A stretch of DNA of 64,000 bases from Candidatus Marinacidobacterales bacterium (GTDB taxonomy: Bacteria; Acidobacteriota; Vicinamibacteria; Marinacidobacterales; DATDRI01). Below, in pieces: positions 2,045-61,753 of this stretch; the first letter of the stretch is position 1; each line of letters opens with the position of its first letter. Under the pieces are notes generated by a model. That model was not told the origin of the DNA. It saw only the letters and a list, made by a program, of their open reading frames with translations, and did not search any database. The DNA lies in contig OZ245365.1 in the NCBI GenBank assembly GCA_965226495.1, positions 3,040,001-3,104,000 of the forward strand, in the 5' to 3' direction. Position numbers and translations under genes: made by a program.

Positions 2045-2180
2045 AGTGACTCAGTGCTCGCTCAATGAGTTGATCAGTGCGGCGGGGCCCCACCCCCACC
2101 GCCGTCCCTTCGCCGGCAAAGCGGCTTCGGGACAGCTGATGGCTCCTCGCGCAGGGTGCCGTGAGTTCGTCAGCACCCTG

Positions 2181-39505: not shown

Positions 39506-39895
39506 ATGTCCGCAAACAAAGACCTCACGAAATCCATGTTCGAACGATTCAACGCTACGGATGCCGACGGCCTTTCGCCATTGGTCAGTGATGGCGTGAA
39601 ACACAGCGCACCGGGGACCCAGTTCGGCGTCGATCTTGAGGGGAAAACGGTGTTTATCGCCTATTTTCGCGAAAAAGTGTTCCCGAAGTTCGAGAAGATC
39701 CACTTCATGCTGGACAACGTGTTCGAAGATGCCGAAGCGGGTGTCGTCGTCACAGAATGGCACGGAGATTTTCTCACCAAGGCTGGCAAGCCGTTCTCGA
39801 GCAAGGGCGTCTTCGTCGTGACGATCGCCGACGGAAAGATCGACTGGGTGCGCGAGTACTTCGACACCGAGAAAACCAAGCAAGCCATGAGCTAA
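39506..39895 (+). CDS. Nuclear transport factor 2 (SnoaL-like) family protein
   Basis: 129 aa; C-terminal V.TIADGKI..VREYFDT. Confidence 0.85.
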   Translation: MSANKDLTKSMFERFNATDADGLSPLVSDGVKHSAPGTQFGVDLEGKTVFIAYFREKVFPKFEKIHFMLDNVFEDAEAGVVVTEWHGDFLTKAGKPFSSKGVFVVTIADGKIDWVREYFDTEKTKQAMS

Positions 39896-39924
39896 GACCC
39901 ATAGGTCGAGGGAGGGCTGGGGAG

Positions 39925-41715
39925 ATGTCAAGCCAGGGCAAAGAAAAGCGCCAGGTAGATCCGATTACGCTGGCGGTGGTCAGGGGCGCGCTCGAAACGA
40001 CCCAACGTCAGATGACTCTGACCATGGAGAGAACCGGACGCTCGAGCGTCGTAGCCGTTTCGCGCGACTTCTCCAACGCCATCTTCAACTGGACTCCCGA
40101 GATGATCGTGCAAGGGCAGGACCTGCCGATTCACTTGGGCTCTCTGATCTTGGCGACCCAAACCATATCCAAATATTTCGAGGACGACATCGAGCCTGGC
40201 GACGTGATCATCCACAACGATCCTGTCTACGACGGAAGTCACACGTTGGACTGGTGCCAATACAAGCCCGTCTACTACGAGAACGAAATCGTCTTCTGGC
40301 TGGTCAGCAAGGGACACATGGCGGATGGAGGCGGACCCGTTCCGGGCGGCTACAACCCGGACGCGACCGAGATCTACGCGGAAAGTTTGCGCATCCCACC
40401 GATCAAGATCATCGAAGCCGGAAAGCTGAAGAAAGATCTCTTCAACCTCCTAGTGACGAACGTCCGCACGCGGGAGAACATATCCGGCGACCTGAGAGCA
40501 CAGCTCGGAGCGCTCCGGGTGGGCGAGCGAAATTTGCTCGCGCTTCTGAAGAAGTATGGAAAAGAAGAGGTCAAGGCATGCGTCTCGGAACTCTTGAATC
40601 TCTCCGAACGCCACATGCGTGAGCTGATCCAGGAGCTCCCCGACGGCGTCCACCGCGGACAAGCCATGGTGGAAGACATCGGACACGGTTTGGGAGACAA
40701 GCCGGTCGATGTCGAGGTCGAGGTCGCGGGAGACGGAATGAAGATCCGTTTGGAGGCGCCACCTCAGATTCCCTTCTACACGAACTCCTATCGAGCCAAC
40801 ACCACGAGTGCGGTCTACCTCGGGCTCGTCATGTTCATGAAGCCGGAGCCGCCTTACAACGAAGGGATGTACCGACCCATCGAGCTCGACTACGGCCCAC
40901 ATGGAACCATGGTCAACGCGAAGGAGCCGGCTCCTCATGTCGCAAGTACCACCTGCCCGGCGGAGACGGTTACCGATGCGGTCCGGAACACACTGGCGGC
41001 AGCCTACCCCGGCAGAGCCTCCGCAGGCTGGGGGCATTGCTCCTGCATCAACGTGTCCGGTATCGATCCCAGGAGCCAAGCCGAATACGTCCACATGATG
41101 GTCTCGACGCTCGCCTGTGGCGCCGGTGCGGTCGAGGGATTGGACGGATGGCACGGGGTCGGCCCGCAAGCAGGGTTGGGAGGGGCCACCTGCGGTGAAC
41201 AGGAACAGCTCGAGTATGGCTATCCGCTCATCGTTCACGATTACTCGATCACGAAAGACTCGGCGGCGGCCGGTCAATTCCGTGGTGGTTGCGGCGTGAC
41301 CTGCGAAGTGGAACCGGTCGGACACGAGATGACCGTGGTGGTGTGGGGTGAAGGTCGCAAGTATCCCGCATCCAATACGGAGGGAGCGAAGTCGGTTTGG
41401 ATCGACAACAAGATCTGCCAGGTCGAGCTGATCAAGGAAGACGGCTCGGTGGAGACGATCCGCGAGAACAAGGTGCTCAAGATCAGACCGGGCGAGCGCA
41501 TCCGCACCACTAGCGCCGGAGGTGGCGCAGTCGGTCCGCCGTTGGCGCGCGATCCCAAGGCGGTGGCCGGCGACGTCCTCAACGAAAAGGTATCCGTCGA
41601 GGGCGCCCGCGTCGAATACGGCGTGGTGATCGATCCCAAATCACACCAAGTCGACGAGGCAGCAACCACGAAACTGCGTGCGGAATCACGAGACAAAGTG
41701 CACCATGGGGTATAA
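39925..41715 (+). CDS. Hydantoinase B/oxoprolinase family protein, caprolactamase beta-subunit-like
   Basis: Start ATG 39925; VDPITLAVVRGALET, QGQDLPIHLGSL, HNDP..GSH.LD, KGH..D.GGPVP.GYNPDA.EIYAE. Confidence 0.92.
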   Translation: MSSQGKEKRQVDPITLAVVRGALETTQRQMTLTMERTGRSSVVAVSRDFSNAIFNWTPEMIVQGQDLPIHLGSLILATQTISKYFEDDIEPGDVIIHNDPVYDGSHTLDWCQYKPVYYENEIVFWLVSKGHMADGGGPVPGGYNPDATEIYAESLRIPPIKIIEAGKLKKDLFNLLVTNVRTRENISGDLRAQLGALRVGERNLLALLKKYGKEEVKACVSELLNLSERHMRELIQELPDGVHRGQAMVEDIGHGLGDKPVDVEVEVAGDGMKIRLEAPPQIPFYTNSYRANTTSAVYLGLVMFMKPEPPYNEGMYRPIELDYGPHGTMVNAKEPAPHVASTTCPAETVTDAVRNTLAAAYPGRASAGWGHCSCINVSGIDPRSQAEYVHMMVSTLACGAGAVEGLDGWHGVGPQAGLGGATCGEQEQLEYGYPLIVHDYSITKDSAAAGQFRGGCGVTCEVEPVGHEMTVVVWGEGRKYPASNTEGAKSVWIDNKICQVELIKEDGSVETIRENKVLKIRPGERIRTTSAGGGAVGPPLARDPKAVAGDVLNEKVSVEGARVEYGVVIDPKSHQVDEAATTKLRAESRDKVHHGV

Positions 41716-43774
41716 GCTCGGAATCGACACCGGCGGCACGTTTACCGACTTCGTGGTTTTTCGCGAAGATGGCACCTGGGAGCTGTCGAAAACTGCTTCC
41801 ACTCCGGAGCACCCCCCGAAGGCGATCCGTGAAGGGCTTCTCCAAATCTGCGACGGCCTGAAAGTCGATCAGAAAGAGTTCCTCGCCAACTGCGACTACA
41901 TCATCTATGGAACGACGGTCGGCCTGAACTCCTTGATTCAGCACAAAGGGGCGAAGCTCGGTCTCTTCTGCACCAAAGGCCATCAAGATTCTCTCGAGCT
42001 CCGCTTGGCGCACAAGGAAGACGGACATCGTTACGACTTCTACTACCCACCGGCGGAGATGCTGGTGCCTCGCTGGCTCCGGATCCCGGTGGAAGAACGG
42101 GTCAACGCCGCCGGCGAGGTGTTGACGCCCCTCAAAGAAGAAGATGTCCGCGCCGGAATCCAGAAATTCAAAGAGGCGGGAGTGGACTCGGTGGGGGTCT
42201 GCTTTCTGTGGTCTTTCCTGAATCCGACACATGAGAAACGAGTAGGTGAAATCATCCGTGAAGAGCTTCCCGACGTTTACTTGACACTCTCGGTCGATCT
42301 GTTACCTCAGATCCGGGAGTACACCCGGGTCAGCACAACCGCGGTGAACGGTTTCGTGGGGCCGGTGCTCCGAAACTCGATCCAAGAGATCGAGAGCATG
42401 TTGCACGATATGGGCTATCGCAACCCCATTCGTTACATGCAATGTAACGGTGGGATCTCTTCGGGCGACTTCATTTCCCGCAAGGCGGTCTACGCCATCA
42501 ACTCCGGGCCGGCGGCCGGCCCGACCGCGAGCCTCTTCTTCGGAGAGCGAGCCAAGCTGAGCAATCTTTTGACGCTCGACATGGGAGGTACCAGCACCGA
42601 CATCAGCATCGTTCAAGACGGCCAGGTGGACATCGTCAAGAACTTGGAAGTCGAAAGGTATTTGTTGGGTATTCCCTTGGTGAACGTCGTCAATATCGGC
42701 GCCGGCGGCGGGAGCATTGCGTGGCTCGATGCCCAGCGGATTCTGAGAGTGGGACCGCAAAGCGCCGAGGCCATCCCTGGACCGGCTTGTTACGGCCAGG
42801 GTGGTACCGAGGCGACGGTCACCGATGCACTCAACGTCCTAGGCTATCTCAACCCCGACTACCTACTGGGAGGCGCGTTCAAGCTCGATCGGGATGCCGC
42901 CCACCGTGCGGTGCGCGAGAAAGTCGCGGAACCTTTGGGTCTCACGATGGAACGAGCAGCGCTTGGTGTCTTCGACGTGGTCAACTCCAACATGATCGGG
43001 GGCATTCGGGCTGTCTCGGTCGAGAGAGGCTACGATCCTCGCGATTTCGTCTTCGTGGCAGGTGGCGGCGCGACCAGCGCGTTTCTCGGTCGGCTCGCCG
43101 CCGACCTGGACGTCGAGCGCGTCCTGATTCCGAAAGTGGCATCGGGCTTGTGCGCCTTCGGAGAAGCGATCGCCGACGTCAAACACAGCCACATGGCAAC
43201 TTACATCACCCACTTCTCGAAACTGGATCTCGGGCGCCTCAACGGCATTCTTTCCGACCTCGAGTCCACGGGCCGGAAGGATCTCGAGGAAGAGGGGTTC
43301 GCCCCCGAGGACATCGCGACCCAACGTTCCATGGAGATCCGATACGCCGACCAAATACATGAATGCACGGTGCCGATACCGTTCCAGGGCGAGCTCTCCG
43401 AAGAATACGTCGGAAAGGTGAAAGGGCTTTTTCACCGCCGGCACGAAGAAATCTATACCTACTGCGAGCCCGACAATGAACCGGAGCTGGTCAACGTAGA
43501 AGTGAACGCGATCGGACTAACGCGCGCGTCCAGCCGAGCGGTTGGGCAAGCGGAAGAAAACGGCGCGGGGGAAGGCGTCGCCGCGAAGCGTCGGGCCTAT
43601 TTCCACGAGAACAAAGACTATGTGGAAGTTCCCGTGTATGACGGGCGACACATCAAGGTCGGACAGAGCATCACTGGCCCCGCGATCATCGAAGAACCGA
43701 CGACCACCATCGTCGTCTTCCCCGATTGGAAGATCGAGCTGAAGCCGGCCAGTTACTATTTGATGACGCGCTGA
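41705..43774 (+). CDS. Hydantoinase A/oxoprolinase family protein, caprolactamase alpha-subunit-like
   Basis: Start ATG 41705; LGIDTGGTFTD, GTT, HKEDGHRYD..YPPA.MLVPR, INSGPA, DMGGTS, GAGGGSI. Confidence 0.92.
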   Translation: MGYKLGIDTGGTFTDFVVFREDGTWELSKTASTPEHPPKAIREGLLQICDGLKVDQKEFLANCDYIIYGTTVGLNSLIQHKGAKLGLFCTKGHQDSLELRLAHKEDGHRYDFYYPPAEMLVPRWLRIPVEERVNAAGEVLTPLKEEDVRAGIQKFKEAGVDSVGVCFLWSFLNPTHEKRVGEIIREELPDVYLTLSVDLLPQIREYTRVSTTAVNGFVGPVLRNSIQEIESMLHDMGYRNPIRYMQCNGGISSGDFISRKAVYAINSGPAAGPTASLFFGERAKLSNLLTLDMGGTSTDISIVQDGQVDIVKNLEVERYLLGIPLVNVVNIGAGGGSIAWLDAQRILRVGPQSAEAIPGPACYGQGGTEATVTDALNVLGYLNPDYLLGGAFKLDRDAAHRAVREKVAEPLGLTMERAALGVFDVVNSNMIGGIRAVSVERGYDPRDFVFVAGGGATSAFLGRLAADLDVERVLIPKVASGLCAFGEAIADVKHSHMATYITHFSKLDLGRLNGILSDLESTGRKDLEEEGFAPEDIATQRSMEIRYADQIHECTVPIPFQGELSEEYVGKVKGLFHRRHEEIYTYCEPDNEPELVNVEVNAIGLTRASSRAVGQAEENGAGEGVAAKRRAYFHENKDYVEVPVYDGRHIKVGQSITGPAIIEEPTTTIVVFPDWKIELKPASYYLMTR

Positions 43775-46658: not shown

Positions 46659-47573
46659 TCAGTCGCCTCGAGGAAGGTCGAACACCATGGCGTCTTCTCC
46701 GATGACGATCGGGCCATCGAACTCGGACTTGGCGTCGGCGAGAATCTTCGACCAAATCTCCGGACCCCGTCGCTCTCCGTAGTACATGGACGCCATCTTC
46801 ACCGCCGCCGGATGCGAGTCGTAGGGTCCAAGGTGCGTCAAGACGAGTTTCTTGGCACCGGCACGCCGCGCGACACTCCCCGCGCCGCGGGGACCGCTAT
46901 GGCCGCGCATCTCGCGGTACTCCATCACCTCTTCCAGAAAGGTGCACTCATGGACCAGGATGTCGACATCTCGAGCAAGCTCCACCATCGCGTCACAGGG
47001 TCCGGTATCTCCGCTGATCGCCGCCGATCCGTATTCAGTGTCGACGCGGAACCCGTAGGAAGATTTCTCGAACCCCAAGATCTGAATGTGCTCGACCTCG
47101 CGAGCCGTCACTTTGAACTTGTCGGTCTCTAAGACGGTACCTTCGCGAATCTCTTTGACCCCGATAGAGGGCTCGGGGGTGGGGCGATCGGTGATGTGAT
47201 CGGGAAGGCTCGCGACGAACCGCTTCACAAACTCCACGTCGAGATGGTGCATCTCCAACATCCCCGCCACCATGCGCTCGGTGCCTACCGGGCCGTAGAT
47301 GTTCAGAGAAGTCTTCCCACAATTCCACGTACTGAAAAAGAGATAGTTGCAGTCCACCATGTGATCCCAATGGAGATGAGTAAGGAACACGTGGTCGACG
47401 TCCATCGGACTGAACCCGGCGCGGATCAGATTGACGGTGGCTCGCTCGCCGCAATCGAAGAGCAGCACTTCCCCATCGACGACCACCGCTTGGGATGGAT
47501 TGCCGCGGGACGGATCGGGGAGTGCCGAGCCAGACCCCACCACGACGACTTTCATGCCTCGCGCACTAGCCAT
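46659..47573 (-). CDS. MBL-fold metallohydrolase (RNase Z/AtsA-like), paralog of 18248-19201
   Basis: THLHWDH, SGDT, HECTF, GHS, LTHLGPYDS. Confidence 0.88.
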   Translation of the reverse strand: MASARGMKVVVVGSGSALPDPSRGNPSQAVVVDGEVLLFDCGERATVNLIRAGFSPMDVDHVFLTHLHWDHMVDCNYLFFSTWNCGKTSLNIYGPVGTERMVAGMLEMHHLDVEFVKRFVASLPDHITDRPTPEPSIGVKEIREGTVLETDKFKVTAREVEHIQILGFEKSSYGFRVDTEYGSAAISGDTGPCDAMVELARDVDILVHECTFLEEVMEYREMRGHSGPRGAGSVARRAGAKKLVLTHLGPYDSHPAAVKMASMYYGERRGPEIWSKILADAKSEFDGPIVIGEDAMVFDLPRGD

Positions 47574-47649
47574 AGTGGCACGCAGTATACACTGTCACTG
47601 AACTGCCCTATACTCCTCAACAAATTTGCCGGGGATGAAGGAGAACGAG

Positions 47650-48735
47650 ATGAAGAAGAAAGTCGAGACCGAAGCGAGTCATGGATTCAGCCGTCGAAAC
47701 CTCTTTCGTGCGGTTCTCGGAGGGACAATGGCTTCCGCCGTCTCGTCGGGCGCGTCGGGCGTCGAAGCGGCTCCGCCGACCGCGGAGGTTGGCGATCAAG
47801 GTATGTACGCGGTGATCACAGGGTCCGGCTCCGCGATGGCCGATCCCGAGCGAGGCAATGCCAGTGCCGCGGTGGTCGTGGACGGAACCGTTTTGCAGTT
47901 CGACTTCGGCCGGAAAACGATGGACAACTTGATGCGCGTCGGAATCAACCCGATCAACCTCGACTATATTTTCTTCACTCACCTCCATTTCGACCACATC
48001 GCCACCTACGACTATTTCATCATCTCGTCTTGGATCGCAGGGCGTAGGGACCCCTACAAGGTGTTCGGACCTCCGGGTACGGTCGCGATGTCGAACGGGG
48101 CGCTCCATCACATGCACGAAATGGACGTCCGGTTCGTGAAATATATCGTCGACACCTGGCCCAACATTGCCGAGGAGTCTCCGGTCGCGGAGCCTCCCGT
48201 CGAAGTCACGGACGCCGAACCAGGCCTGGTGGTAGAGACCGATGATTTCACGGTCACCTCGACCGCAACCCCGCACCTCAGTCCCCCCAACATGTACAGC
48301 AGGGGATATCGAGTCGATTCCAAGTACGGCTCGGTCGTCATCAGCGGAGACACCGCGCCTTCGGAAAATATGGTGGGTCTCGCCAAGGACGCCGACATCC
48401 TCATTCATGAGTGCGTGATTCCCGACTACGGCATGACAACCGCCGGCAAGTTTAGCCGCAAGGAATTCCACGTGAAGGAGACGAAGAATCAGCGCACCGG
48501 TCACACCTCGCCGACCGGCCTAGGGAAACTAGCGGAGCAGGCCGGGGTCAAGAAACTGGTGGCCTACCATCTCGCTCCGTACACCAGCGTGCCGGCCGCG
48601 GTGGAAATGTCCGAGAAGTACACCGGTCCGAACCCCGGTCCGGAGATCTGGTCAAAGTACATCCACGCCATGAAGAATCAGTACTCGGGCCCGGTCATCC
48701 TGGCGGAAGACGCGATGGTTCTCAAGGTTTCGTAA
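47650..48735 (+). CDS. Tat-exported MBL-fold metallohydrolase (RNase Z/AtsA-like)
   Basis: SRRNLF twin-Arg signal; THLHFDH, SGDT, HECV, GHTSP. Confidence 0.87.
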   Translation: MKKKVETEASHGFSRRNLFRAVLGGTMASAVSSGASGVEAAPPTAEVGDQGMYAVITGSGSAMADPERGNASAAVVVDGTVLQFDFGRKTMDNLMRVGINPINLDYIFFTHLHFDHIATYDYFIISSWIAGRRDPYKVFGPPGTVAMSNGALHHMHEMDVRFVKYIVDTWPNIAEESPVAEPPVEVTDAEPGLVVETDDFTVTSTATPHLSPPNMYSRGYRVDSKYGSVVISGDTAPSENMVGLAKDADILIHECVIPDYGMTTAGKFSRKEFHVKETKNQRTGHTSPTGLGKLAEQAGVKKLVAYHLAPYTSVPAAVEMSEKYTGPNPGPEIWSKYIHAMKNQYSGPVILAEDAMVLKVS

Positions 48736-48747
48736 GTGGGTTCCGAC

Positions 48748-49776
48748 ATGAACGGCTTTACTCGAAGAGGATTTTTCGGCGGCCTCTTGGTGGCGCCCGC
48801 CGCCTTCGGTCTCCAAAGCGCAAAAGCGGCGAAGAATATCGACTTGGAACGCCCCGGCATGCGGGCGTTGATCACCGGTTCGGGGTCGGCTCTCATCGAT
48901 CCGCTACGTGGCAACGCGAGCGTGGCGGTGATCGTCGACGGGACGGTCCTTCAGTTCGACTTCGGCCGTCGCGCCATGGACAACCTCGCGCTGGCGGGGA
49001 TCAATCCGGTGAACGTGGATTACATCTTTTTCACGCACCTCCACTTCGACCACATCGCGACTTACGACTACCACGTCATCTCTAGCTGGATCGCGGGACG
49101 TCAGACGCCCATTGAGGTTTTTGGCCCCACCGGCACGATCGATATGTCGGACAAGGCCATCTATGGAATGCACGCGGTGGACATCGTTTTCGTCGAGAAG
49201 CTCTTGGCCGGGTGGCCCAAGCGGCTCGCTCGCAGGCCACAGGATAAGCCACCGATCGATGTGCACGAAGTCGGAGCCGGAGTAGCGGTAGAGACGGATG
49301 CTTTCAAAATCACGGCGGTGGAAACGCCGCACTATCGATCGATGGGCGTTCTAAGCCTCGGCTATCGAATCGACTCCGAGCACGGATCGATCGTGGTGAG
49401 CGGAGACACCGCGCCCTCGGACGAGCTCGCCGAGCTCGCCAAAGGAGCAGATCTCCTCATTCATGAATGTGTGATTCCCGATCCCGGCATGACGAAGTCG
49501 GGCAAGTTCGCGGAGAAGCCTCCCGACGACGAACCGCCCGAGGGACACACGTCTCCCACCGAGCTCGCTCAGTTGGCTCAGCGGGCAGGGGTCAAGAAAC
49601 TGGTTGCCACTCACCTCGCACCGTATACGAGCGTCGACGCGGCAGTAGAAATGTCCAGCATGTACCTCGGCCCTCGTCTAGGCGAGGAAATCTGGGGAGA
49701 ATTCGCCCACGCGATGAGCCAGCAATACGATGGCCCAGTCGTTCTGGCCGAGGACGGGATGGTTTTCGAAATCTAG
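48748..49776 (+). CDS. Tat-exported MBL-fold metallohydrolase (RNase Z/AtsA-like)
   Basis: TRRGFF twin-Arg signal; THLHFDH, SGDT, HECV, GHTSP. Confidence 0.87.
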   Translation: MNGFTRRGFFGGLLVAPAAFGLQSAKAAKNIDLERPGMRALITGSGSALIDPLRGNASVAVIVDGTVLQFDFGRRAMDNLALAGINPVNVDYIFFTHLHFDHIATYDYHVISSWIAGRQTPIEVFGPTGTIDMSDKAIYGMHAVDIVFVEKLLAGWPKRLARRPQDKPPIDVHEVGAGVAVETDAFKITAVETPHYRSMGVLSLGYRIDSEHGSIVVSGDTAPSDELAELAKGADLLIHECVIPDPGMTKSGKFAEKPPDDEPPEGHTSPTELAQLAQRAGVKKLVATHLAPYTSVDAAVEMSSMYLGPRLGEEIWGEFAHAMSQQYDGPVVLAEDGMVFEI

Positions 49777-52107: not shown

Positions 52108-54864
52108 GTGCCGAAGAAAAAAAACCTCAGCTTTAAAGTGAATGGTCAGACCGAGACGCTCGAAGTCTCTTCACGCACCCGACTCCTCGACGCTCTGCGG
52201 CTAGGACTCGGACTCACCGGCACCAAGGAAGGGTGCGGCACCGGAGACTGTGGCACCTGCACCGTTCTCCTCGACGGGCGTCCCGTCAATTCCTGCTTGG
52301 TCATGGCGCTCCAATCCGAGGGTCGCGAAGTCACCACCGTCGAAGGCCTGGGAACGCGCGGCCGGCTCGATCCGATTCAAGACGCGATGGTGCAGTGCGG
52401 CGGTATCCAATGCGGTTTCTGTACTCCCGGCATGGTGATGTCGCTGAAAGGGTTGATGGCGAGAAACCCCCAACCGACCGAGGAAGAAGTTCGCGTCGCC
52501 ATCTCGGGGAATCTCTGTCGTTGTACCGGCTACAGCAAGATTCTCGAGGCCGCCCAAAGCGTGGTCGACGGCGTGAGGCCCGACAAGCCCGATGGCACTA
52601 TCGGGTCGCGTTTCGTTCGCACCGACACGGTAGAGAAAGTCACCGGCCGGGCCGTCTACGCCGAAGATATCCAACTTCCGAAAATGATCTACGGCGTGGT
52701 GGTGCGGAGCCCTTATCCCCACGCGCGTATCCTTTCCATCGACACGTCCGAAGCGAAAGAGATTCCCGGAGTCAAAGCGGTCGTCACCGGCCGCGATTTC
52801 GAGATGGGTTTTTACGGCATCGACCTACAAGACCAGCAGATCTTCGCGCTGGACAAAGCGCGATTCCTCGGCGAACCGGTGGCGGCGGTAGCGGCGTCGA
52901 CACTAGATCTCGCGCGCGAGGCTGCGGACAAGGTCCAAATCGAGTACGAAGAGCTCCCCGCGGTTTTCGATACGGAAGAAGCGATTGCCGCAGAGGCCCC
53001 TCTGGTTCATCTCGACGTGAACGAATACGAGCACAATTGGAAATCGGAACGGACCGGGAATCTCTGCTACCAAACGTGGATCGGTCACGGCGATGTCGAC
53101 AAAGGGTTTGCGGAGTCGGACTTCGTCGTAGAGGGAACGTACCGCACCCCGGTCGCTCACCCCGGTGCCATCGAACCGCATAGCGCGACCGCCGAGGTGG
53201 ATCCTTCCGGTCGGGTCACCGTTTGGACCACGACGCAGAAGCCGTTTGCGGTTCGGGCCTACCTCGCTCGTGCGTTCAAACGGCCGGTGAACGATTTCAA
53301 GGTCGTACAAACCCATATCGGCGGCGGCTTCGGTGGCAAAGTCGTCCTTTGTCTCGAGCCTTACGCGGTCACCCTGGCCGAGCGGGCCGGCGTTCCGGTG
53401 CAGATGACATTGACGCGCGAAGAAGAGATGTCGACCACGACGCTCCGGCACCCGGCAAGAGTTCGTCTCGAGACCGGCGTTAAGCGCGATGGCACGTTGG
53501 TGGCGCATCGGGCGCGGATCCTATTCGATACCGGCGCCTACTCCGGCGACGGCCCGACGGCGGGGGCGCTTGCGACGCTGATGGCCACCGGCCCCTATCG
53601 ATTCGAGCACGTCGACGTGACCGCGCTGGTTACATACACCAACAACATTCCCTGCGGTTCTTGCCGATGCCCAGCCGGACCGCAAATGGCGTTCGCGGTC
53701 GAGACCCACTTGGAAAAGATCGCTCGGCGGCTAGGCATGGACAGTCTAGAGTTTCGTCTCAAGAATGCCTGGGTAGACGGAGACTACACGCACACCGGCC
53801 AGGAGCTCACGTCGGTGAGCGTCAAGGAGTGCCTCGAGAAGGCCGCTGGGGCAATCGACTGGGGCACACCTCGAGCGCCGGGAGTCGGTCGAGGCTTGGC
53901 CTGTAATTGGTGGGTCAGTGGAACCTGGGCGACATCGACCCTGATGGAGACCAACGAGGACGGCACCTTTCGTCTTGTCTCAGGTGGTGTCGACATGGGA
54001 ACGGGCGCCATGGGAACGAGCGTGTTGCAGATGGCGGCCGCAGGGCTCGGCGTGTCTCCCGAATCTATCCAACTCGTTCGCGGCGACACCGACACGCTTC
54101 CCTGGGATCACGGACACGGAGGGAGCCGAATGGCCTTCACGGTAGGGCGTTCGGCATACGAAGCGGCTCTGGACCTCAGGAAACAGCTGCTGGATGAAGC
54201 GGCGGGTGTGCTAGAAGCACACGCGGACGCGCTCGAGATTGAGGGTGACAACATCCGAGTCCGAGAGGAGCCAGAGCGTTCGGTTTCATTGGCCCGCATC
54301 TGCTATCGACGGCACAAGAAACATGGAGGCCCTTTAATCGGGAAATCTTCGTTGCTACTCGAGCCTCCCCCGACCGAGCGGACCCGACACCGCGATCATC
54401 CGTATCCCGCGTTTCCCGCGCCCAGCTTCTGCGCGCATGCCGTCGAGCTCGTGGTGGACGACGAGACCGGCGAAATCACCGTGAAGCGCTATTCGGCGGC
54501 ACACGACGTGGGGAGAGCGATCAACCCCACTGCGTGCGAAGGCCAGATCGAGGGTGGCGTGTCCATGGGGCTCGGGTTGGCGCTATCGGAAGAGATTCGA
54601 GAAGAGAACGGGAAGGTGCTCAATCCGAATTTCGCGGACTACCTACTTGTGACCGCGGAGGACATGCCGCCCACGCAAACGTTCTTGGTGGAAAAACCCG
54701 CCGTCGAAGGCCCGTTCGGAGCCAAGGGTGTTGGCGAGCCGCCCGCCGCTCCACCGACCGGAGCGGTCGCCAACGCGCTCACCGATGCGTTGGGCGTCGA
54801 TGTCGTTCGGCTTCCTCTTCATTCCGAAGAGGTCGTGTCTCTCATTAGGACGCGCCGTTCCTGA
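52108..54864 (+). CDS. Fused (2Fe-2S)+molybdopterin-binding xanthine dehydrogenase/aldehyde oxidoreductase family subunit (copy 1)
   Basis: GCGTGDCGTC, QCGFCTPG, NLCRCTGY, GGGFGGK, DMGTG, GQIEGG, AKGVGEP. Confidence 0.92.
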   Translation: MPKKKNLSFKVNGQTETLEVSSRTRLLDALRLGLGLTGTKEGCGTGDCGTCTVLLDGRPVNSCLVMALQSEGREVTTVEGLGTRGRLDPIQDAMVQCGGIQCGFCTPGMVMSLKGLMARNPQPTEEEVRVAISGNLCRCTGYSKILEAAQSVVDGVRPDKPDGTIGSRFVRTDTVEKVTGRAVYAEDIQLPKMIYGVVVRSPYPHARILSIDTSEAKEIPGVKAVVTGRDFEMGFYGIDLQDQQIFALDKARFLGEPVAAVAASTLDLAREAADKVQIEYEELPAVFDTEEAIAAEAPLVHLDVNEYEHNWKSERTGNLCYQTWIGHGDVDKGFAESDFVVEGTYRTPVAHPGAIEPHSATAEVDPSGRVTVWTTTQKPFAVRAYLARAFKRPVNDFKVVQTHIGGGFGGKVVLCLEPYAVTLAERAGVPVQMTLTREEEMSTTTLRHPARVRLETGVKRDGTLVAHRARILFDTGAYSGDGPTAGALATLMATGPYRFEHVDVTALVTYTNNIPCGSCRCPAGPQMAFAVETHLEKIARRLGMDSLEFRLKNAWVDGDYTHTGQELTSVSVKECLEKAAGAIDWGTPRAPGVGRGLACNWWVSGTWATSTLMETNEDGTFRLVSGGVDMGTGAMGTSVLQMAAAGLGVSPESIQLVRGDTDTLPWDHGHGGSRMAFTVGRSAYEAALDLRKQLLDEAAGVLEAHADALEIEGDNIRVREEPERSVSLARICYRRHKKHGGPLIGKSSLLLEPPPTERTRHRDHPYPAFPAPSFCAHAVELVVDDETGEITVKRYSAAHDVGRAINPTACEGQIEGGVSMGLGLALSEEIREENGKVLNPNFADYLLVTAEDMPPTQTFLVEKPAVEGPFGAKGVGEPPAAPPTGAVANALTDALGVDVVRLPLHSEEVVSLIRTRRS

Positions 54865-54923
54865 GCCCGCGGCAGCATCATTTGGGGTTGCCCCGCGTCT
54901 GACATAGTAGAATAATTCCAACC

Positions 54924-57707
54924 ATGAAAAAGACTCTGAACTTCACGGTCAACGATCAACCCGAAACGATTGACGTCACTCCCCGGACCCGTCTGCTCGA
55001 TGCACTCCGAGTCGACATGGGCCTGACCGGCACGAAAGAAGGATGCGGCACCGGCGACTGCGGGAGCTGTACGGTGCTCTTGGATGGCAAGGCCGTGAAT
55101 TCATGCATGGTTTTGGCGCTCCAAGCCGAAGGAAGAAACATCACCACCATCGAGGACTTGGGAAAACCGGGTACTCTCCACCCGATCCAGCAAGCCATGG
55201 TGCAGTGCGGCGGCATCCAGTGTGGGTTTTGCACCCCAGGGATGGTGCTTTCGCTGAAGGCGCTTCTTGATGAGAATCCCCGCCCGGACGAGAAAGAGAT
55301 CCGCGTCGCCATCTCGAGCAACCTTTGCCGGTGCACCGGCTATAGCAAGATCCTCGATGCCGCGAAGGCGGTGGTCGACCGAGCGGCAACCCCGGGAGCC
55401 GCATCCTCTGGCAACGGCAATGCCAAACCTGAGGATGGCTCGATTGGATCGCGCATGGTGCGAACCGACGCCGCGGAGAAAGTGACCGGACGCGCGGTCT
55501 ATGCCGAAGACATTCGGCTCCCGCGCATGATTTACGGTGTGCTGGTTCGCAGCCCCCACGCGCACGCGGAGATCCTCTCCATCGATACCTCCGAGGCGGA
55601 GAAGTTGCCAGGGGTCAAGGCGGTGGTCACCGGCCACGATGTCGAGATGGGTTACTACGGAATCGATCTTCAGGATCAGCAAATATTTGCGTTGGAGAAA
55701 GCGCGTTTTCTGGGCGAGCCCGTAGCCGCTGTTGCGGCGACGACGCCCGACATCGCGCGGGAAGCGGCTTCGAAGGTGAAGGTAGAATACCAGGAGCTGC
55801 CGGGGGTCTTCGACGCAGAGGAAGCGATCGCCTCGGACGCGCCACTCGTGCACGACGACGTCAACACCTATGAGCACAATTGGGAGTCGGACCGGAAGGG
55901 AAACCTTTGCTTCCAAGCGTGGGTCGGAGAGGGTGACGTCGAAAAAGGATTCGCCGAGTCAGATCACGTGATCGAAGGCACCTACTACTCACCGGTGGCG
56001 CACCCCGGCTCTATCGAACCGCACAGCTCGACGGCCATGGTGGATCCCTCAGGACGGATCACGGTGTGGACCACCAACCAAAAGCCCTTCGCGGTCCGAA
56101 GTTATCTGGCCCGTGCGTTCAAGCGACCGGTGAATTCGTTCAAGATCGTTCCGACCCACATCGGCGGAGGCTTCGGCGGCAAATTGGTCCTTTGTCTCGA
56201 GCCCTACGCGGTGATACTCGCGGAGCGGTCCGGACTTCCGGTGCAAATGACCTTGACACGCGAGGAGGAGATGGCGACCACGACGCTTCGCCATTCGGCC
56301 AAGGTCGAGCTCAAGACCGGCGTCAAGAAGGACGGCACCTTGGTGGCTCATCGGGCGCGCCTTTTGTTCAATACCGGCGCTTACTCCGGTGACGGCCCTA
56401 CCGCAACGGCGCTCGCAACTTTGATGGCCACTGGCCCCTATCGATTCCCGAACTTGGACATCACGGGCCTCGTGTCGTACACGAACAATGTTCCCTGTGG
56501 TTCCTGCCGGTGTCCGGCCGGGCCGCAGATGGCCTTCGCGGTAGAAACGCACCTCGAGAAGGTGGCACGCGCCATCGATATGGACAGCCTGAAGTTCCGC
56601 CTCAAAAACGCGTGGGAAGACGGTGACACGACGTGCACCGGACAGGCCCTGGACTCGGTCAGCGTGAAGGAGTGCCTGCAAAAAGCGGCGGATGGCGTGG
56701 AGTGGGACAAGCCGCGTGCGCCCGGCGTCGGAAAAGGACTGGCTTGCAACTGGTGGGTCAGCGGAACTTGGGGTACTTCCACGCTAGTAGAAACGAACGA
56801 AGACGGCACCTTCCGTCTCCTCTCGGGTGGTGTCGACATGGGCACCGGTGCTATGACCACGAGTGTGCTGCAAATGGCGGCAGCCGGTCTCGGCGTGCCC
56901 CCCGAGTCGATTCAGCTCGTTCGGGGTGATACCGACACGCTCCCCTGGGATCATGGGCACGGCGGCAGCCGTATGGCGTTCACCGTCGCGCGGTCGGCCT
57001 ATGAAGCCGCTGAAGATCTCAAAGATCAGTTGCTCCAAGAGGGTGCGCACCAGCTCGAGGCTTCGATCGACGAGCTGGCCCTCGAGGGCGATCGTATTTT
57101 CGTCCGCGAGGATCCGTCGCGCTCGGTGCCTCTGTCGAAGATTTGCTACTACCGTCACAAGAAACACGGGGGGCCGTTGATCGGTCGCTCGTCGATCCTG
57201 GACGACCCCCCTCCGACGCCAAAGGGACGACACCGTTTCCATCCTTATCCGGCCATGCCGGCACCGAGCTTCTGCGCCCATGCGGTGGAGCTCGCGGTGG
57301 ACGACGAGACCGGCGAGGTTTCCGTGACGCGCTACGCGGCCGCTCACGATGTGGGCAAAGCCATCAACCCCACGAGTTGTGAAGGGCAGATCGAAGGCGG
57401 CGTCGCCATGGGACTCGGGCTCGCGTTGATGGAGGAACTGCGCGAAGTAAACGGGAAGGTCCTGAATCCAACCCTCGCCGACTATCTTCTTCTGACCGCC
57501 GAGGATATGCCTCCCATGAAAACAATTTTGGTCGAGAAACCCGCGACCGAGGGACCGGTCGGGGCCAAAGGAGTCGGTGAGCCACCCATTGCGCCGCCCA
57601 CCGGTGCGGTTGCCAACGCACTGACGGAGGTGCTGGATGTCAACGTCGATCGCCTTCCGCTGACTCCTGAAGAGGTCTCGACACTCATCGGAGCACGAAA
57701 ATCATGA
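54924..57707 (+). CDS. Fused (2Fe-2S)+molybdopterin-binding subunit (copy 2, tandem paralog)
   Basis: Same motifs; highly similar to copy 1. Confidence 0.92.
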   Translation: MKKTLNFTVNDQPETIDVTPRTRLLDALRVDMGLTGTKEGCGTGDCGSCTVLLDGKAVNSCMVLALQAEGRNITTIEDLGKPGTLHPIQQAMVQCGGIQCGFCTPGMVLSLKALLDENPRPDEKEIRVAISSNLCRCTGYSKILDAAKAVVDRAATPGAASSGNGNAKPEDGSIGSRMVRTDAAEKVTGRAVYAEDIRLPRMIYGVLVRSPHAHAEILSIDTSEAEKLPGVKAVVTGHDVEMGYYGIDLQDQQIFALEKARFLGEPVAAVAATTPDIAREAASKVKVEYQELPGVFDAEEAIASDAPLVHDDVNTYEHNWESDRKGNLCFQAWVGEGDVEKGFAESDHVIEGTYYSPVAHPGSIEPHSSTAMVDPSGRITVWTTNQKPFAVRSYLARAFKRPVNSFKIVPTHIGGGFGGKLVLCLEPYAVILAERSGLPVQMTLTREEEMATTTLRHSAKVELKTGVKKDGTLVAHRARLLFNTGAYSGDGPTATALATLMATGPYRFPNLDITGLVSYTNNVPCGSCRCPAGPQMAFAVETHLEKVARAIDMDSLKFRLKNAWEDGDTTCTGQALDSVSVKECLQKAADGVEWDKPRAPGVGKGLACNWWVSGTWGTSTLVETNEDGTFRLLSGGVDMGTGAMTTSVLQMAAAGLGVPPESIQLVRGDTDTLPWDHGHGGSRMAFTVARSAYEAAEDLKDQLLQEGAHQLEASIDELALEGDRIFVREDPSRSVPLSKICYYRHKKHGGPLIGRSSILDDPPPTPKGRHRFHPYPAMPAPSFCAHAVELAVDDETGEVSVTRYAAAHDVGKAINPTSCEGQIEGGVAMGLGLALMEELREVNGKVLNPTLADYLLLTAEDMPPMKTILVEKPATEGPVGAKGVGEPPIAPPTGAVANALTEVLDVNVDRLPLTPEEVSTLIGARKS

Positions 57708-58567
57708 TCAACGACTTCGAGTTCACGCAGCCGCGGGATGTTCCAGAAGCCCTCAAGGCCTTGACCGAAAAAGGTCGGATCGTGCCGGTTGCCGGCGGTA
57801 CCAACGTTTTGGTCAACATGAAACGCGCCCCCTTGGAGGCCGACCTCGTCGTTGATTTGACCCGGCTCGAAGCCTTGCAACCGATTTCGAGTGACAACGG
57901 AACCATCCGTCTCGGAGCGGGTGTCTCGTTCGCTCGCCTCCTCGAATGGAGCCCGGGTGGTGCGATCGAAGGGCTGATGCGACCGATGTGCGTCGCATTC
58001 GCTGGCCCGCTCATCCGCAACCTGGCGACGGTGGGCGGAAACATCTGCGACGCGTCTCCGGCCGCCGACGTGTCTCCTCCCCTTCTCGCGCTCGATGCCA
58101 GCGTAAATTTGGAAAGCGCTTCAGGCGGATCACGCTCGCTCGCCCTGCCGGAATTCTTCCAAGGGGTCCGCAAGACGGGACGACGCGCCGATGAGTTGGT
58201 CACGAGCATCGAGTTCACGAAACCCGATGACGATGAGCACTGGTTCTACTACAAGCTCGGCAAGCGCAAGGCCGATGCGATCTCGATCGTCAGCATCGCT
58301 ATGACGGTGAAGCTCTCACGAGGTAAAGTAGAGAGGGCACGGATCGCCTTGGGTGCGGTGGCGCCGGTGGCCGTGCGCTCTCCCGAGGCCGAAGGGGTTC
58401 TTCGCGGCGAGGCATTGAGCGATACCATCATCGCCGCCGCAGCGGCAGCTGCTGCTAAGGAATCGCGGCCGATCGACGATTTCCGGGCGAGCGGTAACTA
58501 CCGGCGGCAGATGGTAGAGGTTCTGGTGAAAAGAGGCCTCAAGGCAATCGCGCGGCGGGACAAATGA
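57704..58567 (+). CDS. FAD-binding subunit of molybdenum hydroxylase (CoxM/XdhB-like)
   Basis: AGGTN, IRNLATVGGN....SPAAD, IALGAVAP, PIDDFRAS..YR; ATGA-coupled. Confidence 0.92.
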   Translation: MINDFEFTQPRDVPEALKALTEKGRIVPVAGGTNVLVNMKRAPLEADLVVDLTRLEALQPISSDNGTIRLGAGVSFARLLEWSPGGAIEGLMRPMCVAFAGPLIRNLATVGGNICDASPAADVSPPLLALDASVNLESASGGSRSLALPEFFQGVRKTGRRADELVTSIEFTKPDDDEHWFYYKLGKRKADAISIVSIAMTVKLSRGKVERARIALGAVAPVAVRSPEAEGVLRGEALSDTIIAAAAAAAAKESRPIDDFRASGNYRRQMVEVLVKRGLKAIARRDK

Positions 58568-58593
58568 CCCCATAAGTGGGAGTTAGTTTTTCC

Positions 58594-60582
58594 ATGCTCA
58601 CATCGCACTTGAGTAAAATCATCTTTGGATCGGCAGCGGCATTGGGTGCTTGGCTCCTATTCGCGCCTCCCTCGACGGGACAAAGCGCCACCCCGCTCGC
58701 CGAAAAGTACAAACGGTTTCTCGAGGGGTCGGCCTCCTACCTCATGACCGACCAAGAGGAAGAGGTCTTCGAAATACTCAAGACCGATGGGGAACGCGAT
58801 CGGTTCATCGCTTCCTTTTGGGAGGTGCGGGATCCCACGCCGGACACGACCCGCAACGAGTTCCGCGACGAGTACGAGGAAAGGACCAAGGAGACCAACA
58901 AGCTCTTCCGCGGCTACGGGCGGGAAGGGTGGAGAACGGAGCGGGGTCGTACCTACCTTCTGCTAGGGCCGCCCCACGAGCGAAGGGCCTTCGACCAGGC
59001 CCGAGATCTTTATCCGATGGACCTATGGTTTTATCAGACGTCGGACCCCGCTCTGCCAGACTTCTTCTACCTCTTGTTCTACCGAAAGGGCGGTGCCGGT
59101 CACTATCGCCTCTGGAACATGATCAATGACGGCCCGCAAGCCTTGCTCGCGGCGACCTGGGCCCCGGGCGCCGTCCGAGGTCAATTAGATCCCTATTTCC
59201 AGAAGGTCGACACCGATCTCTACCAGGCCGTGGTCGCACCGATCCCAGGTGAGCCGCGTTCCTCCCAGGCCTTTTCGCAACAGGAGATTCTCGCCGTCAT
59301 CGAAGACTATCCCAACCAAAGCATGAACCCCGAGTTCCGAGGCCGCTACGAGCCGGGAAGCGCCATCGTCGACGTGGACTACATGTTCCGTAAGATGGAT
59401 TTGGCTACCCTCGTCGCTCTGCTGCCTTCCGAAAACGGACCCTTCATTCATTACGCACTCGAGATGCCCGCCGAGGACGGCAGATTCAATCAATATGAAT
59501 CGACGTACTACACGGTTTACGACGTCGAGGTCATCGTCGAGACACCGGACGGCAAAACGGTCTATCAAATCCAGGACAAACGAGAAATCGAAGTCGGGGA
59601 AAGTGCTTGGGAGGACGCCAGGATGCGGCCGATAAGCCTCCACGGACGCCTACCCATTGTGCCGGGCGAGTTCGTGCTCCGCTTCCTGGTACGCAGCCGC
59701 ACCGGGCATATCTTCGATACCTTTGAGACATCGATTCGCGTACCCGAAGAGATCGATGTGTCCCACATTGTTCCGGCGGGCTTCTTTCAGCGGCGAGAAC
59801 AATTCGGGAGCCAGCTCGCGTTCCATTTCCGTGACGCCATTCCGGTACCCCATCCGACCGCGATCTACCGTCCGGGCGGCTCTCTGCGCGCTTTCCTTGT
59901 GGTGATACCCTCCGAAGCGAAAGAACTGCTGCAAGTTAAGGGCGAAATCATGTACGGCGAGGAAGTCCTCCACATAGTGAACCAGGAATTCCCGGGAGGG
60001 ACACCTGGTCGACCGGCTCTCATGGCACTCGAGATCGGCCTCCGAAGCTCCCTCATGCCTGGCGACCATCGTTTGGAGCTCGAGCTGAGCTCGGGGCAAA
60101 AGCGCACCCTACCGTTTACCGTCGAGCTTGGCCCGGAGCTGGTACCGCCTTTGGTCAACAGTCCTGCCGAAACACCGAATGCCAGTGGTCTGTGGAATGT
60201 GGAGCGAGCCAAACAACACATCGCTCTGGGACAAAACCTCGCCGCGCTCGAATCTCTCGAGAACGCCGTCGAACGGACGCCGGACTTGGAGTCGGCCCGA
60301 CTCCAACTGGGCGTCCTGGCGTTGGGCCTCGGTCAACCCGAACGGGCACTGGACGGTATCGTGCCGGGCTTGATGAATGATCCGTTCCACTACGACATGC
60401 TCGTCCTCGCCGGCTATGCATCCGACCAACTCCGGCAGCTCGACCAGGCAGTGAAATACTACGAGCGCGCTCGCGCTGCAGAGCAACCGGACGAAAGGCT
60501 CCTTCAGGCTCTCGCATCCTTGTACGAAAAGCTCGGCGAATTAGAGAAGGCAGCAGCGGTGCGGCAAGAGATATCTGACTAG
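58594..60582 (+). CDS. GWxTD domain-containing protein with C-terminal TPRs
   Basis: FW..RDPTP.T.RNEF..EY..R, GWRTERGR.Y...GPP, W.Y; signal peptide; TPR helices at the C-terminus. Confidence 0.88.
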   Translation: MLTSHLSKIIFGSAAALGAWLLFAPPSTGQSATPLAEKYKRFLEGSASYLMTDQEEEVFEILKTDGERDRFIASFWEVRDPTPDTTRNEFRDEYEERTKETNKLFRGYGREGWRTERGRTYLLLGPPHERRAFDQARDLYPMDLWFYQTSDPALPDFFYLLFYRKGGAGHYRLWNMINDGPQALLAATWAPGAVRGQLDPYFQKVDTDLYQAVVAPIPGEPRSSQAFSQQEILAVIEDYPNQSMNPEFRGRYEPGSAIVDVDYMFRKMDLATLVALLPSENGPFIHYALEMPAEDGRFNQYESTYYTVYDVEVIVETPDGKTVYQIQDKREIEVGESAWEDARMRPISLHGRLPIVPGEFVLRFLVRSRTGHIFDTFETSIRVPEEIDVSHIVPAGFFQRREQFGSQLAFHFRDAIPVPHPTAIYRPGGSLRAFLVVIPSEAKELLQVKGEIMYGEEVLHIVNQEFPGGTPGRPALMALEIGLRSSLMPGDHRLELELSSGQKRTLPFTVELGPELVPPLVNSPAETPNASGLWNVERAKQHIALGQNLAALESLENAVERTPDLESARLQLGVLALGLGQPERALDGIVPGLMNDPFHYDMLVLAGYASDQLRQLDQAVKYYERARAAEQPDERLLQALASLYEKLGELEKAAAVRQEISD

Positions 60583-60772: not shown

Positions 60773-61753
60773 GTGAAACTGAAGTCAAAGCCTCCAGCCG
60801 AGTCGGATTTCGTGTATCGAAGTTTGCCTCCCTCGGGCAATAAGCTCAACGGCCTGGGCGAGACGGTACCTCGACGAGCGAGCTACGTCTTTCACTCCAA
60901 CGCCAAAACCGGTCCGCTTCCCTGGGACATCATGCAAGCCCATTTTCGCTACACCTATCCGGGGTGGATGCTGCCGGAGCTTCTGACGAGCATGTGGTTG
61001 GCGTTTCGCCCCCAAGGTAAGGTTGCTAGCCAGCGGCGGGAGGTCAACGATCCCGCGGCGATGGCGGCCGAGATCAAAGCGAAGGCAAAAGAGTTGGGGG
61101 CAGGTATCGTCGGAATCTGCAAGATGCGCGATGAGTTCCTGATCGAGGGGACTAGCTCGCCCTATCGCTACGTCATCGCGATGGGTCTACCGATGGACCG
61201 CGAGATCATGTTGGAGGCACCGCGCCTCAAAGCGGGGCGAGAAGTGTTGAGAGTGTACCGTCGCTGCTCGAGACTCACGGTGGACCTGGCGCGCCACATC
61301 CGCTCGATGGGATGGCCGGCGCAGGGGCTGCCCATCAACAGCAGCGGTGAGTACCTACATATCCCCATGGCGACCGCGGCCGGCCTCGGTGAGCTAGGCA
61401 AGCATGGCTCGCTAATATCGAAGGAGTATGGCTCGAATTTCCGGCTCACGTCGGTCGTCACCGACCTACCGATGGCGCTGGATGAACCCGTCGATATCGG
61501 CGTCGAGGACTTGTGCACCCGGTGTCGGGCCTGCACGGTCGAATGCCCGCCGGACGCTCTCTCCGATGAGAAGCAATGGGTACGGGGCACCCAGAAATGG
61601 TACGTGGACTTCGATCGCTGCGTGCCGTACTTCAGCGACAACTACGGCTGCTCGATTTGTCTCGAGGTTTGTCCGTGGTCGGAACCGGACCGGGGACCGG
61701 GCCTCTCGGAAAAGCTTCTTTCCCTGCGCTCCAAGACTGCTCAAACAGCCTGA
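60773..61753 (+). CDS. Reductive dehalogenase / epoxyqueuosine reductase-like cobalamin-binding 2x[4Fe-4S] protein
   Basis: AKELGA..VGI, AAGLGELGKHG.LI..EYG..FRL..V.TDLP, CxxCxxCxxxCP and C..(x)..CxxCxxxCPW. Confidence 0.85.
   Translation: MKLKSKPPAESDFVYRSLPPSGNKLNGLGETVPRRASYVFHSNAKTGPLPWDIMQAHFRYTYPGWMLPELLTSMWLAFRPQGKVASQRREVNDPAAMAAEIKAKAKELGAGIVGICKMRDEFLIEGTSSPYRYVIAMGLPMDREIMLEAPRLKAGREVLRVYRRCSRLTVDLARHIRSMGWPAQGLPINSSGEYLHIPMATAAGLGELGKHGSLISKEYGSNFRLTSVVTDLPMALDEPVDIGVEDLCTRCRACTVECPPDALSDEKQWVRGTQKWYVDFDRCVPYFSDNYGCSICLEVCPWSEPDRGPGLSEKLLSLRSKTAQTA

Follow-up and report, generated by a model that had tools for sequence, protein, structure and literature searches.

Tandem molybdenum hydroxylase genes with a loop cysteine in the copper-ligand column of CO dehydrogenase: an uncharacterised clade of the xanthine-oxidase family

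Does a cysteine placed directly after the arginine of a molybdenum hydroxylase active-site loop, where carbon monoxide (CO) dehydrogenase holds its copper ligand, mark a new kind of metal centre? The question is raised by a 64,000-nucleotide stretch of a Candidatus Marinacidobacterales genome (assembly GCA_965226495.1, contig OZ245365.1, positions 3,040,001 to 3,104,000, forward strand), called the window below. It encodes two tandem catalytic subunits of the xanthine-oxidase family, paralogs A (P0001) and B (P0002), and a flavin adenine dinucleotide (FAD) subunit (P0003). A first-pass annotation had described the same Cys-rich loop in both paralogs, and translation of the two segments gives PCGSCRCPAGPQ each time. 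The genes belong to a well-supported, uncharacterised clade of the family that has no curated name, and the cysteine after the arginine (Cys521; numbering follows paralog A throughout) is nearly universal in it. We conclude that these are probably canonical mononuclear Mo=S hydroxylases, in which Cys521 would be a second-sphere variant and not a metal ligand.

The cysteine does occupy the position that the first-pass annotation had assigned to it. HMMER lays S-C-R-C-P-A-G of P0001 over A-Y-R-C-S-F-R of O. carboxidovorans CoxL (1n5w_B), and Cys521 falls opposite Cys388, the copper ligand of Mo-Cu CO dehydrogenase (counted along the aligned row, 331-421). However, two single residues of CoxL have no partner in P0001, which makes the CoxL loop two residues longer. 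The form I CoxL active-site signature, (A/S)YRCS(F/L)R (PMC13240472), is also absent, since the window proteins read S-C-R-C-P-A-G and the clade S-[IV]-R-C-P, with only R-C in common. In the literature searched, the papers with AYRCSFR or AYRGAGR all dealt with CO dehydrogenase, and no description of an S-x-R-C-P loop was found. Gap-free loop alignments place Gly in the same column in Desulfovibrio gigas aldehyde oxidoreductase (AOR; SAFRGYGAPQ), nicotinate dehydrogenase (GAFRGFGVPQ), and 4-hydroxybenzoyl-CoA reductase (4-HBCR; GAMRGHG), and the loop length of the clade is normal for the family. E. coli PaoC (5g5h_C, N-A-M-R-A-P-G-E) and a Methylobacillus aldehyde oxidase (5y6q_C, W-M-R-A-P-G-E) align to W-R-A-P of a third molybdenum subunit encoded in the window, which BLASTP in turn pairs with C-R-C-P of P0001. 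Because these alignments chain together, the clade loop is best read as a PaoC-type R-x-P with Cys for Ala, rather than a CoxL-type loop.

How constant is this cysteine among close relatives? A word-indexed search found 6142 homologs. The best 120 of these, at 64-91% identity, and the two window proteins went into a MAFFT alignment, to whose columns all counts out of 122 refer. Position 521 is Cys in 117 sequences, Ala in four, and Gly in one, and R-C-P is read by all 29 molybdenum proteins across 28 related genome loci. Position 516 is Lys in 52, Asn in 35, Cys in 31, Gly in 3, and Ala in 1, while position 519 is Ile in 76, Val in 33, and Cys in 13. Only Cys521 of the three loop cysteines is therefore clade-wide. 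The first-pass annotation had let its proposal depend on the cysteines being conserved in homologs, which proved true of Cys521 (117/122) but not of Cys516 (31/122) or Cys519 (13/122). A Cys-rich loop is thus not the subfamily trait that it was taken for, as the two extra cysteines are confined to these minorities and are common elsewhere in the family. The complete C-x-x-C-x-C triad (Cys516, Cys519, Cys521) is limited to the 13 sequences nearest the window proteins, including those of the Marinacidobacterales loci L001, L002, and L009, and the two extra cysteines look like a lineage-specific decoration. The four Ala variants (P0046, P0048, P0091, P0099) all read N-G-S-I-R-A-P-G-A-P-Q. Ala and Gly variants retain WDHGHGGSR and are scattered in the clade beside Cys-bearing sisters, where the limited resolution of FastTree leaves the number of independent Cys losses uncertain.

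The two window copies carry a record of their own. Since both reading frames are tandem paralogs with 77% identity, the presence of the motif in each reflects paralogy, not two independent events. Across the genes, 332 codons are identical, 383 differ synonymously, and 201 change the residue. Within the 12-codon loop, seven codons differ, all synonymously, with no residue change. With so many loop codons altered and every residue kept, amid gene-wide divergence, the loop is under purifying selection and not the product of recent gene conversion. The duplication is old, and synonymous change between the copies is saturated. Paralog B groups with the single-copy genes of Gammaproteobacteria in BLAST best-hit labels and in the tree.

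The placement within the family rests on domain content, profile models, and phylogeny. Both paralogs match Pfam Fer2, Fer2_2, Ald_Xan_dh_C, MoCoBD_1, and MoCoBD_2, all well over cut-off. The [2Fe-2S] modules, the hammerhead domain, two molybdenum cofactor (Moco) domains, the catalytic Glu, the Gln, the loop Arg, and a CoxM/XdhB-type FAD subunit are all as in the xanthine-oxidase family. When the loop columns were left out, a FastTree analysis of 142 rows recovered the 122 sequences as a clade with 100% support, set off by a stem 0.5 substitutions per site long. None of the NCBIfam equivalogs attains its cut-off for the window molybdenum proteins. The top score is that of TIGR03194 (4-HBCR alpha) with 535.1 bits for P0001 against a cut-off of 994.55, and TIGR03311 (selenium-dependent xanthine dehydrogenase) gives 532.9 bits for P0001 and 534.4 for P0002 against 830.45. 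Scores for NF045668 (Desulfovibrio-type AOR) are 450.1 (P0001) and 479.6 bits against 1100, and the selenium-dependent hydroxylase model TIGR03313 reaches 325.9 against 1101.9. P0001 gains 320.6 bits against 991.15 with the CoxL model TIGR02416 and 275.4 against 1180 with NF041671 (PaoC); the second CoxL model, NF040766, gives 277.6 against 950. The clade is nearest to 4-HBCR, selenium-dependent xanthine dehydrogenase, and AOR-like sequences, not to CoxL. Its members here all come from metagenome-assembled genomes (MAGs) of Acidobacteriota and Gammaproteobacteria, and their database names are generic (CO/xanthine dehydrogenase, aldehyde oxidoreductase, selenate reductase). The long, fully supported stem, the lack of an equivalog at cut-off, and these generic names bear out the first-pass annotation's view of an undescribed subfamily. 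No papers on Marinacidobacterales were found in the literature searched. A sponge-symbiont study reports many COG1529 homologs without known function, and the words "motif" and "active site" are absent from that text (PMC8941161).

Outside the clade, the same position tells a different story. An exhaustive search of 50%-identity representatives gave 85,745 relatives, of which the best 150 (33-50% identical) served as the outside set. Among these best 150, position 521 is Gly in 112, Ala in 30, Ser in 6, Cys in 1, and Thr in 1; Cys occurs at 516 in 23 and at 519 in 10; position 522 is most often Phe (51), Pro (43), or Tyr (32); and the catalytic Glu is present in 146. The nearest outgroup sequence, P0126, reads G-S-C-R-G-P-G. 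Position 521 is thus a small-residue site at which Cys is sporadic elsewhere and fixed in this clade. Because the nearest relatives carry Gly, Ala, or Ser, the loop cysteine arose independently of CoxL. The sole outside sequence with Cys521, P0144, is a singleton whose relatives are at most 51% identical to it. In 116 of those relatives, position 521 is Gly in 57, Ala in 44, Ser in 12, Cys in 2, and Thr in 1, and the two with Cys are P0276 (C-G-C-C-R-C-H-G, four cysteines in six residues) and P0284 (M-R-C-P-G). A second conserved R-C clade around P0144 was rejected on this count of 2 in 116.

Other parts of the predicted active site are better conserved than the extra loop cysteines. Glu877 is present in 122/122 sequences and aligns, within GVGEP, to the GVGE of AOR that ends at residue 869/870, so the catalytic Glu is intact, as first noted. 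The histidines highlighted alongside it are also conserved: His668 in 122/122 and His670 in 117/122 (Thr in five), with each position of R-H-K-K-H-G-G kept in 110-122 of the 122. Gln377, Arg447, and Arg520 are invariant or nearly so in a 129-sequence alignment, and the eight cluster cysteines of paralog A (43, 48, 51, 63, 102, 105, 137, 139) are invariant in the clade wherever aligned. We called a residue clade-specific if its conservation within the clade reached 90% and its frequency outside did not exceed 8%. These are Lys378 (beside Gln377), Leu446 (before Arg447), Asn600, Val603, Thr606, Trp607, Trp666, His668, His670, Cys732, Tyr733, Arg735, Lys737, His764, Pro765, Cys775, Cys810, Thr884, and Gly885. 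Several of them presumably sit on loops that touch Moco or substrate in relatives, and a pocket of this polar and basic kind would point to a substrate that is polar or anionic.

An AlphaFold2 model of paralog A, built from the 129-sequence alignment, has a mean predicted local distance difference test (pLDDT) of 96.7 and a predicted template modelling score (pTM) of 0.95. The loop (511-523) is modelled between a strand and a helix beginning at 524, as expected for the family. Foldseek matches the model to AOR with template modelling (TM) scores of 0.88 (1sij) and 0.89 (1dgj), to 4-HBCR (target TM 0.93), and also to xanthine dehydrogenase and aldehyde oxidase folds and to CoxL 8uem (target TM 0.87).

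Comparison with characterised enzymes shows both kinship and distance. The AORs of D. gigas and D. desulfuricans (MOP/MOD; 1sij, 1dgj) share the fusion of 2x[2Fe-2S] and Mo domains in one polypeptide (about 907 amino acids) and the aligned catalytic Glu, and AOR is the best Protein Data Bank (PDB) match to the sequence (E 8.9e-100) and the best fold match (TM 0.88-0.89). However, identity is 28%, the AOR loop reads A-F-R-G-Y-G, and the window has a translationally coupled FAD subunit, since the start of P0003 and the paralog B stop overlap as ATGA. MOP is not known to include such a subunit. PaoABC, the periplasmic aldehyde oxidoreductase of E. coli (PaoC; 5g5g/5g5h), resembles the clade in family, FAD subunit, loop length, and R-x-P-G form (M-R-A-P-G in PaoC; R-A-P-G-A-P-Q in the clade's own Ala variants), whereas it has Ala for Cys, its iron-sulfur subunit is separate where that of the window is fused, and export sets it apart as well. 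Its active site is of the standard mononuclear Mo=S type. The alpha subunit of Thauera 4-HBCR (1rm6) aligns end to end over the molybdenum domain and shares the P-C-G loop start, including the Cys at position 516, but its loop reads M-R-G-H-G and its subunits are separate. The 4-HBCR beta model TIGR03195 scores 101 bits on P0003 against a cut-off of 404.55, and P0003 lacks the extra [4Fe-4S] insert of that subunit because it holds only two cysteines. The Eubacterium barkeri nicotinate dehydrogenase (3hrd) is the best PDB match over the first half of the molybdenum domain (E 1.6e-69) and shares the R-H-P motif of Arg447, although its molybdenum subunit is split in two and its loop reads A-F-R-G-F-G. 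Form I CoxL (1n5w, 8uem) has the same overall fold and a Cys straight after the loop Arg; it differs in signature motif, loop length, accessory genes, family score, and gene order (coxM-S-L, against a fused S-L followed by M in the window).

From the family, architecture, conservation, and gene context described here, we infer an electron path, a role for the cysteine, and a class of substrate. Each paralog, which carries its two [2Fe-2S] clusters in the same chain on the N-terminal side of the Moco domain, would pair with the FAD subunit encoded downstream. Electrons would pass from substrate to Mo, through the two [2Fe-2S] clusters to FAD, and on to an acceptor, with Glu877 as the base that activates Mo-OH. 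Cys521 would be a second-sphere residue beside the equatorial Mo=S and could tune or protect the sulfido. Molybdenum hydroxylases convert N-heterocycles to lactams, and for this reason the window can coherently be read as encoding a hydroxylase whose products are opened by amidases. An N-heterocycle would be hydroxylated to a lactam and then opened by neighbouring enzymes (caprolactamase-like hydantoinase A/B, amidohydrolases, and metallo-beta-lactamase (MBL)-fold hydrolases), with NCS1 permeases alongside; the window context suggests such a substrate.

That Cys521 is a second-sphere variant in a canonical Mo=S enzyme remains, in our judgment, the probable answer. Within the clade, Ala and Gly are tolerated in its place, Gly, Ala, and Ser serve across the family, and PaoC and 5y6q_C have M-R-A-P. 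In addition, genes for copper or selenium maturation are absent among the 43 open reading frames (ORFs) of the window and 134 ORFs from the 28 related loci: we found no MoxR-type CoxD, VWA-type CoxE, XdhC/CoxF, CoxG, or SelD in this set, which comprises 24 + 13 + 97 locus ORFs and, for non-recurrent families, covers the ORFs of at least 150 amino acids that lie nearer to the molybdenum gene. Several points weigh on the other side. Cys521 is present in 96% of a clade that spans two phyla and has persisted across an old duplication, which exceeds the constraint expected of a neutral Ala/Ser-like site. It co-occurs with the clade-specific His668, His670, and Lys378, whose loops touch Moco in related enzymes, and together these could form a joint site. 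The genomes could encode accessory factors at other sites, and an Nramp-like gene is found within 10 kb of the molybdenum gene in 9 of the 28 loci (directly upstream in L012, L016, L017, and L027). The substrate assignment, for its part, is weak because conservation of the neighbours between phyla does not extend beyond the FAD subunit.

If the cysteine does more, it might act on the molybdenum centre itself, through a Mo-S-S-Cys persulfide (a "sulfur shift") or as a direct thiolate, with a tethered or redox-gated cofactor and chemistry unlike classical hydroxylation. The S-gamma of CoxL Cys388 reaches the Mo-bound sulfur through Cu, and Cys521 shares that column and is 96% conserved in the clade. 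A sulfur shift between Cys or SeCys and sulfido is debated for formate dehydrogenase and Nap. Precedents exist for a Cys-sulfido persulfide in the dimethyl sulfoxide reductase family (PMC13653126) and for a [Mo(=O)OH(2)SSH] species in CO dehydrogenase maturation mutants (PMC4240915). Against this stand the Ala and Gly variants inside the clade, the frequency of Ala and Ser at the site among relatives, and the R-A-P enzymes of the PaoC type, which function with a free Mo=S; we consider such a reaction unlikely. The same cysteine, perhaps with His668 and His670, might instead anchor a sulfide-bridged Cu(I) or other metal in a binuclear centre like that of Mo-Cu CO dehydrogenase. The copper-ligand column, the clade-specific histidines on the adjoining Moco-contact loop, and the Nramp-like genes all fit this idea, but the CoxL signature is missing, the loop is two residues shorter, TIGR02416 scores far below its cut-off, Ala and Gly variants occur, and the clade lies nearer to 4-HBCR, selenium-dependent xanthine dehydrogenase, and AOR-like sequences. 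Furthermore, PMC4240915 describes CoxD, CoxE, and CoxF as needed for sulfur and copper insertion in O. carboxidovorans, where the cluster is coxBCMSLDEFGHIK, whereas coxD, coxE, and coxF were not found in the window or the 28 loci. We regard a second metal as very unlikely. Taken as one proposition, that Cys521 comes close enough to the equatorial sulfido to bond with it and serves catalysis or cofactor upkeep, whether by a reversible Mo-S-S-Cys or by a second metal held by Cys with or without His668 and His670, seems doubtful to us.

There are two further alternatives. In the window lineage alone, the C-x-x-C-x-C triad might regulate the active-site loop by way of an additional disulfide or metal site; all three cysteines are retained in both paralogs despite their old divergence and in the 13 closest sequences, L001, L002, and L009 included. 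Still, the triad is confined to those 13 of 122 members, Cys at 516 or 519 recurs unsystematically in the family (at 516 even in the solved 4-HBCR), and the window and loci showed no supporting gene, which leaves this reading a slim chance. A selenium-dependent hydroxylase would agree with the rank of TIGR03311 among the two best NCBIfam matches, yet that score is below cut-off, and neither selD nor other selenium-trait genes were found in the window or loci. Nicotinate dehydrogenase contains selenium that is not known to be protein-bound, and by that example the cysteine is no marker for it; we give this reading hardly any weight. In all, the heterobimetallic, persulfide, or selenium-modified centre that the first-pass annotation had envisaged gained no positive evidence: the CoxL signature is unmatched, Ala and Gly substitute for the cysteine, and genes of CoxD/E/F, XdhC, or SelD type were not found in the window or loci.

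What follows depends on which reading is right. If Cys521 is only a second-sphere variant, the work defines an annotation for an uncharacterised clade of molybdenum hydroxylases, and its signature (S-x-R-C-P with W-D-H-G-H-G-G-S-R and T-Q-K) warns against calling members CO dehydrogenase. If the cysteine does engage Mo=S, a protein-linked Mo-S centre would have arisen in the family a second time, independently of Mo-Cu CO dehydrogenase, and the clade would be a natural test system for how an adjacent thiol affects the stability and reactivity of the labile sulfido.

Table 1. Features of the tandem molybdenum hydroxylase locus, in window coordinates
Feature	Position	Strand	Details
Paralog A (P0001)	52108..54864	+	918 aa; fused 2x[2Fe-2S] + hammerhead + Moco-binding domains; catalytic subunit, xanthine-oxidase family
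Paralog B (P0002)	54924..57707	+	927 aa; architecture as paralog A
FAD subunit (P0003)	57704..58567	+	287 aa, CoxM/XdhB-like; Pfam FAD_binding_5 + CO_deh_flav_C
Two-[2Fe-2S] N-terminal module of paralog A	52132..52557	+	Pfam Fer2 9-63, Fer2_2 77-150
Active-site loop PCGSCRCPAGPQ of paralog A	53650..53685	+	Cys521 codon 53668-53670
Active-site loop PCGSCRCPAGPQ of paralog B	56493..56528	+	Cys after Arg 56511-56513
WDHGHGGSR loop	A 54103..54129, B 56946-56972	+	Aligned with the GGSR Moco-contact loop of AOR; His668 and His670 clade-specific
GVGEP with catalytic Glu877	A 54727..54741 (Glu codon 54736-54738), B 57570-57584	+	Aligned to GVGE of AOR
RHKKHGG segment	A 54310..54330, B 57153-57173	+	Clade-specific basic patch

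The closest related loci are in Candidatus Marinacidobacterales MAGs (L001, L002, and L009, with 92, 89, and 77% identity), and the others (64-71%) are in MAGs of Woeseiaceae, Lysobacterales, and unclassified Gammaproteobacteria, with one labelled Enterobacteriaceae. The sole conserved neighbour of the molybdenum gene is the FAD-subunit homolog, which adjoins it in 25 of the 28 loci and which L002, L003, and L028 lack. Other neighbours recur less often: an alpha/beta hydrolase immediately upstream (15 loci), a major facilitator superfamily (MFS) transporter (12), an HpcH/HpaI aldolase (7), and a 326-amino-acid 2x[4Fe-4S] protein (5). The Nramp-like gene, also present in L008, L010, L018, L023, and L025, encodes a 441-amino-acid membrane protein (Pfam Nramp, E 1.5e-30) with no NCBIfam match. 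In the Marinacidobacterales MAG locus L002 (13385-17103), a copy of paralog A stands alone, followed by transposition genes of the Mutator family, Mu type, and IS21 IstB; the same assembly has paralog B and the FAD subunit on another contig (L009). L014 (7773-14368) and 14 similar Gammaproteobacteria loci hold the molybdenum and FAD genes in an apparent operon with the alpha/beta hydrolase upstream, often an HpcH/HpaI-type aldolase downstream, and an HsaA/HpaB-like flavin monooxygenase component, a glutathione S-transferase, and an MFS transporter nearby. This context hints at an aromatic ring-cleavage pathway, unlike that of the window.

The window itself forms an island of genes for the breakdown of lactams and cyclic amides, with three hydantoinase A/B sets, two NCS1 permeases, six amidohydrolases, four MBL-fold proteins, a luciferase-like monooxygenase, and three TonB-dependent receptors. 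Hydantoinase/oxoprolinase genes, three of B type and two of A type, lie at 332-6343 (-) and 39757-43774 (+). The pair at 39757-43774 scores 834.7 and 914.4 bits on the caprolactamase CapB/CapA models, just under their cut-offs of 1000, which suggests that it may encode ATP-dependent lactam hydrolases. Three consecutive MBL-fold hydrolase genes (one -, two +) occupy 46659-49776, with another at 18248-19201; the strongest partial matches are to RNase Z and the guanitoxin GntH model, all under cut-off. The third molybdenum-hydroxylase large subunit mentioned above (27481-29601, -; 706 amino acids) is PaoC-like (5g5h_C, E 3.4e-68), with the loop W-R-A-P-N-H-P-Q and a hammerhead domain matched only by half. 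It is flanked by genes for a TonB-dependent receptor and a serine beta-lactamase-fold protein and has no adjacent iron-sulfur or FAD gene.

Downstream of the FAD subunit, a GWxTD-domain protein with C-terminal TPR repeats (58576-60582, +) precedes the gene for the 326-amino-acid protein (60773-61753, +), an order kept in L001 and L009. The latter carries its 2x[4Fe-4S] module C-terminally and is nearest to TIGR02486 (reductive dehalogenase subfamily; 121.4 bits against 160.35) and QueG. It stands beside the molybdenum and FAD genes in the five loci counted above (L001, L004, L006, L009, and L022), which span two phyla, and could be a partner or an unrelated neighbour.

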